Notes under the pieces: generated by a model | The model's input: the letters and a program-made list of their open reading frames with translations, nothing else | Told to the model about the DNA's origin: nothing | Database searches by the model: none | Shown here: piece by piece, positions 1,523 to 46,912 of the stretch | How the letters are laid out: each line of letters opens with the position of its first letter | How positions within the stretch are numbered: position 1 is the stretch's first letter | Assembly: GCA_043813875.1 (NCBI GenBank) | Contig: JBDRKP010000053.1 | Location: 1 to 54,834, forward strand | Length of the DNA stretch: 54,834 nt | Origin: an archaeon | GTDB taxonomy: Archaea; EX4484-52; B79-G9 | Direction: 5' to 3' | Made by a program: the position numbers and the translations under genes

Positions 1523-1665
1523 GTGTTCACCTTTTGTATATTTGGCTTCTGGATTTAATTAATGTTGTTTAATTTTGTATTTATGATGCCCTAACTCTCA
1601 CATTTTTGTGGGTTTTTTTTGGTCTATCCTGTTTTACGAGGGATGATTTCGTGCCAGGAAGTTTA

Positions 1666-1763
1666 TAGTAAACGCCATAACTTTTTGGACAAATGGCGTT
1701 TCCATATAGTTGACATCTCTTGGTTTTTGGCATAATTTGTCCATTTATCAACGATGTCAACTA
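1666..1763. mobile_element. TA-flanked bipartite hairpin miniature element (A+B modules), copy 1, upstream of srp54
   Basis: TA|TAGT...ACTA|TA; module A stem AAACGCCAT/ATGGCGTTT; module B stem TAGTTGACATC/GATGTCAACTA; similar to 31399-31497 and 46238-46336. Confidence 0.8.
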
Positions 1764-1804
1764 TATTTAAAGTTTATAATCAAGGTAATTTTCAGGTAAT
1801 CAAT

Positions 1805-3144: not shown

Positions 3145-4497
3145 TCATATCACTTTGTCTTTCTTAAGTTCTTTTAGCATCTCTTCGACCGAATGGGCTG
3201 CCCTTGTCACGCCCATGCTTCTTGTGTCTGTGTCTGTCCCTGCAAGATAAAGGCCGCTTATCGGGGTTCTTGGGCCAGGGAATCTGGCGCCGACGGTTAT
3301 TGCTGCCTTTTCAGGAGTGGTCACCTGTATGTGCTTCATGATTATGCCTTTTTCTATGCCGGGAAACAGGCCTTTAATTGTGTCTAATAGCAATTCACTC
3401 TGCTCTTTTTCTGTGCGCCCGCCTGTCAGCGCGGATGTAAAACCGATTAGCTGAGTGCCTGGTGGCGCGAACTGAGGGTCATAATTGGATACTGGCATGG
3501 CCCAATATGGGGTATCGCTGTTTGAAAATACTTCTGAGCCGATATAATCAAATTCTTTCCTTTTTTGCTTCAGACCAAGCCATAATGTGAGGGCTTTTGA
3601 CTGCTTAAGGTTCAAGAGTGAATCTTTGAAGTCTTGGGGGAGTTTGTTTTCTATCAATGATGGAAGGGTTTTGACTTCTGCTGTGAAGATGACGATGCCT
3701 GATCTGTATTTGCCTTTTTTTGTGGTTGTCAGAAAGGCGTTTCCTTTCTTTCTGATTTTTGTGGCTGCTTCATCTGTGTTTATTGTCACGCGGCCGATAG
3801 GAATTGACATCAGGATCGCGTTTGTTATGCTTCTTATGCCGCCGGCAGGGTAACCATGACCGCTGATGTTGTTGTTTTTAACTATGCCGACGATGCCTGA
3901 GATTTTTTTCTTTATGCCGCGGGACAGTTCATCGGTGGTGCCGCCGCCTGAAAGTATCCGCCATACGGGGGTCTCTTCCATGGATTTGCCTGAGAGGAAA
4001 TAGCATACTGTGTCGATAAATTTCAGGGCGCTCTGAGAGAAGTCGTATTTTTTTATGAAATCATAGACGCTTTTGTCTAGTTCTTTTTCGTCAAATGTGT
4101 GGTTTTTTGTAGCGTCGATGAAGGAGCGCGCGATTATGAGCCGGTCTTTTTTTGAGAACATGTTAAATCTTGCAAGCGACTGCAGAGTGGAGGGGAATCT
4201 TAAGAGCTTGTTTTCGCTTCTTACGTAATAGTGCCCATGCGGAAGAAATCTTGGGACTATGTCAAAATATTTATTCATAAGTTCGACCAGCGGTCCTTTT
4301 TTGAGGCTGGTGATGGCGTGGACTCCTGTATCTACCTGGAAACCAGCGATATTGTATGACCTGCAGTTGCCGCCGAGAAGTGATGTTTTTTCAAGGAGCA
4401 GTACGGTTTTGCGTTCTTTTGCGAGCGCAAGCGCTGACAGGAGCCCGGAGATGCCGGCGCCTACTACGACAGCGTCATATTTTTTTTGAGAGATGAT
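3145..4497 (-). CDS. FAD-dependent oxidoreductase (phytoene dehydrogenase-like); probable ATC start
   Basis: Frame extends 73 codons upstream of the ORF-track ATG and encodes YDAVVVGAGISGL...LLEKTSLLGG; C-terminal GLYLAGTD; in-frame TGA at 4503-4501 within the AGGTGA SD. Confidence 0.85.
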   Translation of the reverse strand: MISQKKYDAVVVGAGISGLLSALALAKERKTVLLLEKTSLLGGNCRSYNIAGFQVDTGVHAITSLKKGPLVELMNKYFDIVPRFLPHGHYYVRSENKLLRFPSTLQSLARFNMFSKKDRLIIARSFIDATKNHTFDEKELDKSVYDFIKKYDFSQSALKFIDTVCYFLSGKSMEETPVWRILSGGGTTDELSRGIKKKISGIVGIVKNNNISGHGYPAGGIRSITNAILMSIPIGRVTINTDEAATKIRKKGNAFLTTTKKGKYRSGIVIFTAEVKTLPSLIENKLPQDFKDSLLNLKQSKALTLWLGLKQKRKEFDYIGSEVFSNSDTPYWAMPVSNYDPQFAPPGTQLIGFTSALTGGRTEKEQSELLLDTIKGLFPGIEKGIIMKHIQVTTPEKAAITVGARFPGPRTPISGLYLAGTDTDTRSMGVTRAAHSVEEMLKELKKDKVI

Positions 4498-28429: not shown

Positions 28430-28506
28430 GGTCGGCTTATTTTTGGCTAGCGTTCACAAAATCAAGTGCTGTACAAAGCAGAACCTTGGTTTTTGGATAT
28501 GTTTTA

Positions 28507-28549
28507 TAGTGAATTCAACAACTTATGGCACAGATGTTGAATTCCCATA
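28507..28549. repeat. Module A variant of the TA-flanked hairpin element
   Basis: TA|TAGT-GAATTCAACA-loop-TGTTGAATTC-CCATA; same ends and similar loop, different stem sequence. Confidence 0.65.
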
Positions 28550-28629
28550 TCATAACACTTACATGTTAAGCTTTTTGGCAAAGCCAAAAATACTCAATCG
28601 CATTTGATTTTTGGATATATGATGTTATC

Positions 28630-28806
28630 AAAAATCATGAAATTTCGAGTAAATTGGTGGATTTCAAGCTTTTTAAGCGGAGCTTAAAAGCCCTAAAAAT
28701 TGTTAAACAATTTTAGGGTCCCAAAAATCTTTGATTTTTGAGGACTTCGAGCAACGCGAGATGATTTTTATTGTCGGCATATGCTTTATACACAATAAAA
28801 AATAAT
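28630..28806. repeat. Multi-stem repeat 'C', copy 1, with two extra internal hairpins
   Basis: Colinear with 38853-38975 apart from a 54-bp insert (CCTAAAAATTG..CAATTTTAGG; CAAAAATC..GATTTTTG). Confidence 0.8.
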
Positions 28807-31245: not shown

Positions 31246-31396
31246 TCGCCAAAGACATAACTCTTTAGAATCATGTCTTTGTCATATCCTTAAAATCGCC
31301 TTGCGATTTTAGGATCCACAAACCTTTGGTTTGCCCGGATAGTTAACGCCTTTTGTTTGTTGGTTTAAGTTGTCATTGATGTTACGACGTTAACTA
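31246..31396. mobile_element. Degenerate A+B element with two small hairpins inserted at the A/B junction
   Basis: A' 31246-31286 (AAAGACAT/ATGTCTTT); hairpins 31287-31339; B 31340-31396 (TAGTTAACG/CGTTAACTA). Confidence 0.65.
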
Positions 31397-31398
31397 TA

Positions 31399-31497
31399 TA
31401 GTAAAAGTCATAACTTTTTAGACTAATGACTTTTACATCTAGTTAACACCGTTTTGTTTTTTGGTTCAATTTGTCCAACTATTAACGATGTTAACTA
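31399..31497. mobile_element. TA-flanked A+B hairpin element, tandem copy
   Basis: TA|TAGTAAAAGTCAT...ATGACTTTT...TAGTTAACA...TGTTAACTA|TA; 99 bp. Confidence 0.8.
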
Positions 31498-31593
31498 TAC
31501 TTACAATTATTTGAATCATGCTTCTTTCTTATGTATTCTCCCGGAAATATTATAAAGCTTGCGGAAGAAGAAGGGACGGTCTGTACGAATCAG

Positions 31594-38846: not shown

Positions 38847-38975
38847 ACAATAAAAAATCATGAAATTTTGAGGATATTGAGGCATTTCAAGCTTTTTCAG
38901 CTTTCCTGAAAAGCTTCGAGCGAAGCGAGATGATTTTTATTGTCGGTATATAAGTTATATACAATAAAAAATATT
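38847..38975. repeat. Multi-stem repeat 'C', copy 2, upstream of tpiA
   Basis: ACAATAAAAAATCAT / ATGATTTTTATTGT outer stem; internal TGAAAT/ATTTCA and GCTTTTTCAG/CTGAAAAGC. Confidence 0.8.
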
Positions 38976-46118: not shown

Positions 46119-46912
46119 TTATGTGATATTTCTAATAAAATTCAGAACAGCATCAGGCCTGTCGCTTGAGATTATGTCGACGTTCAGTCCGAGCATCTTT
46201 TTGATGTCATCCAGCTGATTTATGGTCCATGCATTTATAGTAAAAGTCATAACTATTTGGACTATATGACTTTTCCATATAGTTAATGCCTCTTGGTTTT
46301 TGGTTATATTTGTCTATTTAGTAACGGTCTTAACTATATTTTGATGTTGTTTTTGTGGCATTCTTCTACCAGTCTCTTGTCTAAGAATACGTAATTCATG
46401 CAGAGGATGTCTGCATTGCACGCCTTTACCATGGACACGGTGTCTATCGGTCTTGCTTTGATGATGGCGCCGGTCTTTATCTTCGGCTCGAGCTCTTTTG
46501 CCTTTTTTACTGTTTCGTGCCAGAACGAGACAAGAATTACTTTGTCTATGACATTGTTAGTTTTTATGATGGATAGTATTTGTTCTAGTGTTTCTGGTTC
46601 TTTTATCTCAATTGTCATCACGGGCTTTTCGTTTTTGAGATGGGTGATGACCTCCTGCAGCGCCAGGATCTTTTCGCCTTTGCCTGCGTCAAGTTTTTTG
46701 ATTTCTCCAAGCGTGTAGTCTTTAACGTATCCCCTGCCGTTTGTTGTCCTCTCAAGGGTGCCATCGTGTATTACTGCAAGTTCTTTGTCTTTGGTCATTC
46801 TGATGTCGAATTCTATAAAATCTACACCTAAAGATATTGCTTTCTTGAATGACCTCATCGTGTTTTCTGGTTCAAGGCCTGCTGCGCCCCTATGGCCTGT
46901 TATCAATACCAT
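46119..46912 (-). pseudogene. Glycerophosphodiester phosphodiesterase split by a 99-bp element
   Basis: GHRGAAGLEPENT, EFD, HD, EIK in the 5' part; NAWTIN...VDIISSDRPD in 46119-46235; frame restored by removing the element and one TA. Confidence 0.9.
46238..46336. mobile_element. TA-flanked A+B hairpin element inserted in the GDPD gene
   Basis: TA duplicated at 46236-46237 and 46337-46338; empty site reads AAA ATA AAT GCA TGG (KINAW). Confidence 0.9.

Follow-up and report, generated by a model that had tools for sequence, protein, structure and literature searches.

What kind of element is the 98-99-bp repeat that recurs along this archaeal contig, each time bounded by TA and containing two hairpins, how would it move, and what does the conserved pairing of its hairpins mean? 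The window, by which we mean the whole stretch of 54,834 nucleotides analysed here, is contig C53 of an archaeal source MAG, G000, that comprises 1.64 Mb in 90 contigs, has a G+C content of 44%, is 91.5% complete, and contains an archaeal SSU rRNA scoring 1478 bits. SRP54, whose gene lies beside the first copy, is 83-84% identical to that of its closest named relatives, which are Candidatus Nanohalarchaeota records from sediment and seep MAGs, and all genomes of this lineage that were compared are fragmented MAGs. Throughout, L-numbers denote loci from other records, and C-numbers denote contigs of G000 unless stated otherwise.

Three full copies are found on the plus strand of the window, at the positions assigned to them by an initial annotation of this DNA and with the sequence that it described. 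Each is laid out as TA / TAGT..hairpin A..CCATA / TAG(A)TT..hairpin B..AACTA / TA, and the element proper, between the flanking TA dinucleotides, measures 98-99 bp in the window and 98-101 bp across G000. Copy 1 (1664..1765) has its element proper at 1666-1763 and its TA dinucleotides at 1664-1665 and 1764-1765; its terminal inverted repeats (TIRs) occupy 1666-1690 on the left and 1739-1763 on the right, the arms of hairpin A lie at 1670-1678 and 1693-1701, and those of hairpin B lie at 1705-1717 and 1753-1765. This copy scores 113.4 bits with a covariance model built from 19 G000 copies, folds as single-stranded DNA at -20.6 kcal/mol (z -6.83), and carries TGGACAAAT at both of its ends, as had been pointed out. 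With the start of SRP54 set at 1805 by comparison with relatives, copy 1 stands 39 nt upstream of that gene. On the other side of the copy, a segment of the window that ends in a T-run (1586-1623) matches contig C62 of G006, a second genome of the genus, twice at 94-100% identity; it may represent a further small repeat or a module resembling a terminator.

Copy 2 (31397..31499, element proper 31399-31497) scores 103.6 bits with a fold z of -5.21, and its left TA is at the same time the right TA of a longer variant immediately upstream. Copy 3 (46236..46338, element proper 46238-46336) scores 105.5 bits; its B stem is damaged and its single-stranded DNA fold reaches a z of only -2.67, while its final CTA (46334-46336) is the TAG stop of a minus-strand open reading frame (ORF) at 46334-46912.

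The longer variant, about 150 bp on the plus strand at 31246..31398, had been described as a degenerate copy. Its left terminus is indeed degenerate, with CATTCGCC in place of TATAGTC, and nhmmer matches it in two parts (31251-31315 and 31330-31396), but it is better described as a long form with two extra hairpins between hairpin A and hairpin B and a four-hairpin fold at z -5.93. Locus L091 has the same four-hairpin form with different stems, and the differences between its extra hairpins and those of window 31246-31396 are compensated. A solo A-type module is located on the plus strand at 28505..28551, where it starts TATAGTGAATTCAACAAC. It had been listed, at 28507-28549, as an A module of the present family; it is of A type, but it belongs to a 'GAATTC' sister subfamily and is not found by the family HMM. 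BLAST aligns it at 89% identity over 47 nt to C67:6034-6080, its first 20 nt are identical at five other loci, and the intact 101-bp two-hairpin form of the sister subfamily is G000 C77:19040-19140.

Beyond this solo module, window 28552-28780 and 38847-38946 contain a pile of small repeats, each composed of an A-run, a hairpin and a T-run. A 45-nt hairpin-repeat unit (window 28630-28674) has about 15 copies in G000, and similar small hairpin units are nested in the hairpin A loop, or between A and B, of long forms of the element, as at G000 C4:5516-5660 and in the copies on C61, C17, C69 and C72.

An HMM made from the three window copies returned 20 full-length matches in G000 together with about 30 partial or split ones, and the covariance model returned 54, numbers well above what chance would give. 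Elsewhere the model matched seven of the seven other genomes of the genus, 13 of 15 genomes of family f1, and, among further families of the order, five of ten in f4, the single genome of f5 and one of two in f8; none of the 13 genomes of families f2, f3, f6 and f7 was matched, nor were any of 19 archaeal genomes outside the order. Some copies at separate loci are identical (C20 and C38; C24 and C57), which indicates that the family has moved recently. Taxonomic labels call for some care here. Locus L107, labelled Bacteroidota, contains a copy that is identical, as printed and together with its flanks, to the C20 copy of G000, and its contig probably belongs to the G000 archaeon and was binned wrongly. 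Several copies in a single MAG labelled Methanosarcinales (L091, L188, L203, L220 and L228) suggest the same misbinning problem.

The initial annotation had read the flanking TA as a target duplication, and comparison of filled with empty sites demonstrates this directly. For 101 elements we queried all fetched sequences with each flank on its own, and obtained three filled/empty pairs. In L028, a copy with TA on both sides fills 1501-1603, and a duplicate of the site 900 bp away (2389-2470) is empty, with flanks that are 100% identical and a single TA. The filled site at G000 C24 8934-9038 has paralogous empty sites at C38 3500-3581 (TA) and C37 1468-1550 (CTA), and the site filled by the L110 copy is empty, with TA, at the orthologous position in another species (L021). 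The element proper therefore runs from TAG to CTA, and the flanking TA is the target duplication. Filled-filled orthologous pairs between species were absent among the 101 elements examined, which implies, for a sample this small, that insertions turn over on the timescale of speciation.

For copy 1 itself, the orthologous regions upstream of SRP54 in relatives are too diverged to reveal any empty site. In public runs searched as Logan contigs, where the organism is present at a depth of about 2-5, no contig skips a copy, a coverage too thin to judge, and the contig joints at copies derive from other copies or repeats. RNA run X3 contains short contigs of window genes and MITE modules with mismatches, which says nothing on transcription.

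Target duplication also bears on whether the family could have an HUH-type origin, as a PATE derived from IS200/IS605 or as a REP-like element whose movement depends on a Y1 transposase. HUH elements make no target duplication. Two subterminal hairpins and conservation of structure alone are what such an origin would lead one to expect, and G000 does contain an IS200-type Y1 fragment at a contig end: on the minus strand of C84:3102-3338 lies the C-terminal part of such an enzyme, cut by the contig end and followed by the hairpin CGCCCGCCC...GGGCGGG. This GC-rich hairpin is, however, unrelated to that of our element, whose termini are instead inverted repeats identical to IS630 TIRs, and the TnpB zinc-ribbon domain has no match in G000. 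An HUH enzyme, which had been named among the candidate transposases, is excluded by the TA duplication, and we consider an HUH origin of the family exceedingly improbable.

The affiliation of the element is given by its ends. Its left end reads TATAGT-N6-CATAACTTTTTRGAC, which is also the TIR carried by full-length IS630-family elements in a Methanomicrobiales MAG and in Altiarchaeales IMC4. We scanned a collection holding one genome per prokaryotic species with the pattern TATAGT-N6-CATAACT-N-TTT-R-GAC, whose 21 specified bases should, by our own arithmetic, match less than once by chance in the collection, and found it in at least 104 stretches. Among the matches listed, most are in nanohaloarchaeote-labelled MAGs, and the others include Altiarchaeales IMC4 (on a 1.39-Mb contig), Aenigmatarchaeota, multi-megabase Poribacteria contigs, and Methanosarcinales, Methanomicrobiales, Methanomethylophilaceae and Methanobacterium MAGs. 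Two of the matches listed are full-length elements flanked by TA. The first, from the Methanomicrobiales MAG (L112:741-1851), is 1.1 kb long and has near-perfect 27-bp TIRs, TATAGTCGATAACATAACTTTTTAGAC and TATAGTCAATAACATAACTTTTTAGGC. Its orfA contains HTH_23/HTH_32 and its orfB contains DDE_3 (2e-24), the two being joined at an A-run frameshift site; orfB scores 107.7 bits with the IS630 model NF033545 (cut-off 100), and NCBIfam names both ORFs as IS630 family. The second, from Altiarchaeales IMC4 (L086:2001-3138), has the layout and TIR of the first and scores 115.4 bits with NF033545. The proteins of the two elements are only 33-35% identical, yet the TIR is the same, and in each element the transposase reading frame runs into the right TIR, where its final residues are encoded. 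An IS630 element from the same order as G000 (L177 951-2030) ends in TA/TAGTC...TTAGA.

Some of these elements may have landed in genes. The L086 element, with TA on both sides, lies between an ORF at 1659-2039, whose product has a GVGKT P-loop motif, and an ORF at 3170-3676, and our impression from the translations is that it may split one KaiC/RecA-like ATPase gene. The L177 element, in genome G018, may be inserted in another transposase gene, judging by its flanking translations.

The end geometry reported for the window copies, TAGT-N16-T(G/A)GAC, recurs at both ends of 16 G000 elements. The 16 nt are not all variable, as had been supposed, but include at the left end a conserved CATAAC(T) box. 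TAGT, the 16 nt and TGGAC thus correspond to the outer and inner boxes of an IS630-family TIR with the CATAAC box inside the 16, and what the initial annotation called a bipartite terminal repeat is an imperfect TIR, 25-27 bp long, that belongs to an IS630-family group. The right end is a degenerate version that agrees with the TIR consensus of the insertion sequences at about 18 of 27 positions by our own count, and its specific form was found in 75 stretches, almost only in nanohaloarchaeote-labelled MAGs. As its left end is the TIR of full-length IS630-family elements, we take the repeat to be an IS630-derived MITE. Enzymes of this family are described as binding TIRs through two HTH motifs and as inserting almost only at TA, which is duplicated (PMC2170065).

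A MITE of about 190 bp with TATAGT...CATAACT...TGGAC ends is present on multi-megabase contigs of Poribacteria (L078, L083, L103, L130 and L144). It looks conventional despite having the same TIR, and its ends indicate that this type of TIR crosses domains.

A transposase with matching ends had been proposed as the thing to look for, and IS630 elements L112 and L086 have ends of this type; no cognate transposase turned up in G000, nor, for those copies in relatives that were examined, in the surrounding 2 kb. A tblastn search of G000 with the L112 proteins returned nothing, an IS630 transposase profile matched no place in G000 and five of the 42 genomes of the order, and Pfam DDE_3 is present in only three of the 16 genomes of the family. 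At none of 74 loci in relatives was an IS630 ORF detected within 2 kb of B-type ends. A contig end is 140 bp away from the sole IS630-family gene of G000 (C62:11870-13000; L056 956-2070), in which an A-run frameshift site accompanies orfA and orfB; we rejected this gene as the source of the MITE, as repeat search and local alignment identified no TIR around it and its ends are unlike those of the MITE. The IS630 elements of genomes G005 and G006 were set aside because their TIR, TAGCAAWCCAAG..., is of a different type. A 2.4-kb stretch of C34 enclosed by two MITE ends was considered as a parent element and discarded, since its genes are housekeeping ones and the ends are neighbours by chance. 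Multi-copy insertion sequences are often missing from fragmented MAGs, and with G000 itself so fragmented and incomplete the absence of the transposase is weak evidence. That these symbiotic archaea, with no such transposase of their own, have their MITEs moved by the enzyme of a partner cell seems to us very unlikely.

Collectively, the small size, lack of coding capacity and many dispersed copies of these repeats, the insertion at and duplication of TA seen in the three filled/empty comparisons, and the TIR match at the left end argue that they are very probably a non-autonomous transposon of about 101 bp, a MITE derived from an IS630/Tc1-mariner insertion sequence, in agreement with the type first proposed for them. 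By analogy with the IS630 family, a DDE transposase of this type, supplied in trans, would bind the 25-27-bp TIRs, recognising TAGT-N6-CATAAC-TTTTTRGAC on the left and the degenerate version of it on the right. The enzyme would then excise the element and insert it at a TA, which would be duplicated in the process.

The copies are inserted in intergenic stretches or in the ends of genes. Judged by a simple ORF heuristic, no ORF spans 19 of the 20 full G000 copies; the exception, in C24, sits in an ORF of 139 aa within repeated sequence that is probably not a gene. Four of the 20, including window copy 3, carry the stop codon of a neighbouring ORF. Eleven are located between co-directional ORFs, five in the same orientation and six in the opposite one, and there is thus no orientation bias.

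The hairpins are formed within the ends themselves. Just inside each TIR lies an inverted copy of its outer 9-13 nt, and by pairing with this copy each end can form a hairpin, whose loop contains the inner TIR box. An internal TA (CCA-TA-TAG) marks the junction of the two halves. Minimum free energy folding and consensus folding both yield two local hairpins, without any end-to-end stem, and intact copies folded as single-stranded DNA reach z -5.2 to -7.3. The stems quoted in the initial annotation are correct, and their pairing is kept as their sequence changes. RNAalifold applied to 19 G000 copies recovers the two hairpins with compensatory changes in eight of 21 pairs, and all five stem differences among closely related G000 copies, as read from the alignment, are compensated on both arms.

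A larger set of 89 model matches (80 distinct), drawn from the window and the loci of relatives, shows strong covariation in both stems. In an alignment fitted to the model structure, which favours the pairing counts, and against shuffle controls that overstate significance because the copies are related, 93.1% of 1642 cells are paired (78.4% when shuffled), 16 of 21 pairs have a change on both sides (shuffled 11.5), double-change cells number 225 (shuffled 59), and the covariation score is 0.375 (shuffled 0.117; slid controls 0.03-0.07), values that none of 500 shuffles reached for any of the four measures. Watson-Crick pairs account for 1508 of the 1642 cells, with 21 G:T and 43 A:C, an asymmetry that we do not use to name a strand since the copies are not independent.

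The design is not confined to this family. Elements with the same TIR and the same fold-back arrangement, built on unrelated stems, are found in Aenigmatarchaeota (L113, L081 and L085; z -4.6 to -7.0), Altiarchaeota have a four-hairpin example (L073; z -9.15), and two sister subfamilies of G000 share the design. Full-length L112 and L086, as read from their sequence, have no terminal fold-back hairpins, from which it follows that the transposase needs no hairpins to recognise an end.

The initial annotation went further, taking covariation to imply a recognition step that involves single-stranded DNA or RNA. Covariation means that pairing is maintained; a single-strand recognition step is not thereby demonstrated, given full-length elements that carry the same TIR without hairpins, a neutral route through template switching, and the lack of orientation bias relative to genes. 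The last point weighs most directly on a role for the hairpins in the host as RNA, in which co-transcribed copies would protect 3' ends or act in termination or processing, as proposed for Correia and ERIC. An RNA structure would tolerate G:U pairs, and the given strand shows no excess of them (21, compared with 43 for the opposite strand). Rfam returned no match at its gathering score in the whole window, where a tRNA scan also found none, the copies turn over between species, and the identical copies at different loci point to selfish spread. In favour of an RNA role, all copies do lie between genes or at gene ends, and stable stem-loops are reported for bacterial MITE transcripts (PMC2229807), but on balance we think this role improbable.

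Could the fold instead serve the element? The terminal hairpins may be a required feature of recognition or assembly, with a single-stranded DNA fold or an extruded cruciform as the form in which the element is processed; this could bring its ends together for the DDE transposase, and selection on mobility would keep the stems paired. Strong covariation in both stems, the compensation of every stem difference among close G000 copies, and the covarying extra hairpins of the long form are all consistent with this, as is the recurrence of the design with unrelated stems in three archaeal phyla sharing the TIR and in the sister subfamilies of G000. The lack of filled-filled orthologous pairs makes the copies look young, and if so selection would act through mobility. 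A duplex of about 100 bp is too stiff to bend its ends together. Extruded hairpins would rebuild each outer TIR as an intramolecular duplex and leave only a few nucleotides between the two TA-flanked cleavage sites, and extrusion would thereby let a DDE transposase synapse the ends of such a stiff duplex, or of half-modules of about 50 bp. Against a required fold, the full-length IS630 elements with this TIR dispense with such hairpins, single-stranded intermediates are shown by nothing in these data, and covariation in DNA palindromes has a neutral explanation. IS630 and mariner enzymes, moreover, are described as acting on duplex ends (PMC2170065). We hold the required fold to be a tentative proposal.

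The neutral explanation is that covariation is a mutational by-product: template switching during replication between the arms of a quasipalindrome would copy substitutions from one arm to the other, so that stems stay perfect while drifting in sequence, with no selection for folding. This process is established in E. coli and yeast, where it is described as producing compensated changes without selection (PMC7202029). The dominance of Watson-Crick pairs and the scarcity of G:T are what arm-to-arm copying should yield, and the indifference of the copies to gene orientation, as well as the dispensability of hairpins in autonomous elements, is in line with it. It leaves unexplained, however, both the origin of the fold-back design and its persistence across several phyla and subfamilies; the process has not been studied in these archaea, and window copy 3 indicates that stems can decay in place. 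Template switching is likewise a possibility that we would put short of probable.

We rank the two explanations as about equal, with the RNA role lower. Pairing would thus be kept either because folding into hairpins or a cruciform aids the movement or persistence of an element this short, or through template switching between its arms. The bolder extension of the first, that in very short IS630-type elements the fold-backs are a functional adaptation, one that gives them a structure-dependent form of cut-and-paste transposition across DPANN and other archaea, we regard as doubtful.

A full-text literature search returned no description of this repeat family. A widespread and apparently undescribed family of archaeal repeats thus gains a candidate parent in an IS630-family group, and the new element of this work is the link, drawn from sequence comparison, between the ends of the MITE and full-length IS630-family elements. 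It involves a TIR of about 27 bp that is kept between transposases 33-35% identical and that extends from methanogens and Altiarchaeales to Poribacteria. For the annotation of small DPANN genomes, the family accounts for many repeats lying between genes, and likewise for many contig breaks and altered gene ends, and it carries the warning that covarying hairpins are not to be read as regulatory RNAs. Should the fold matter, it would offer new insight into the synapsis of very short elements.

Several known systems resemble these repeats in part. The ends of Correia elements start TATAG. By the description in PMC2229807, Correia/NEMIS elements of Neisseria also have TA termini and duplicate TA, and their classes of about 107 and about 155 bp, which differ by a 50-bp internal piece, parallel the forms of about 101 and about 150 bp seen here. 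The likeness is one of description, and the Neisseria elements differ in being bacterial, in having 24-bp TIRs that pair in an end-to-end stem, and in having, according to the same source, no known transposase (PMC2229807); long TIRs joined in one such stem are not what we find.

RUP of pneumococcus comes close as well. It is described as a non-coding, multi-copy element of about 107 bp with TA targets and IS630-like TIRs, much like the present element, and it was proposed to be mobilised by IS630-Spn1 on an argument of the kind used here, from TIR similarity and TA targets (PMC2229807). RUP is, however, a bacterial element, described as forming one long stem-loop by end-to-end pairing of its TIRs (PMC2229807), whereas in the MITE described here each end forms a hairpin of its own and the cognate insertion sequence was not found in the same genome. 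CIR of Caulobacter and Brucella shares the two stem-loop arms joined by a linker, with no pairing of the 5' and 3' ends in the account given; it is described as having no TIR and as fitting the MITE criteria partly (PMC2229807), in contrast to the TIRs and target duplication present here.

REP/BIME-RAYT systems and the PATEs of IS200/IS605 are similar in being short dispersed hairpin modules that form mosaic arrays and conserve structure over sequence (PMC2817692). Their movement depends on Y1 enzymes of the HUH type, with insertion beside a fixed tetranucleotide and no duplication of the target, and here we see TA duplication and IS630 TIRs in place of a Y1 enzyme with matching hairpins. With IS630-family insertion sequences such as ISY100, L112 and L086 the MITE shares TA duplication, and its left 27 bp fit the TIR of L112 and L086; the MITE differs in containing no gene, in its fold-back hairpins and in its degenerate right TIR. 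A census of prokaryotic MITEs gives DPANN the highest MITE densities among archaea (PMC11602168). Placed among these systems, the repeat is an ordinary class of element with one oddity, a hairpin at each end that is kept by compensating mutations.
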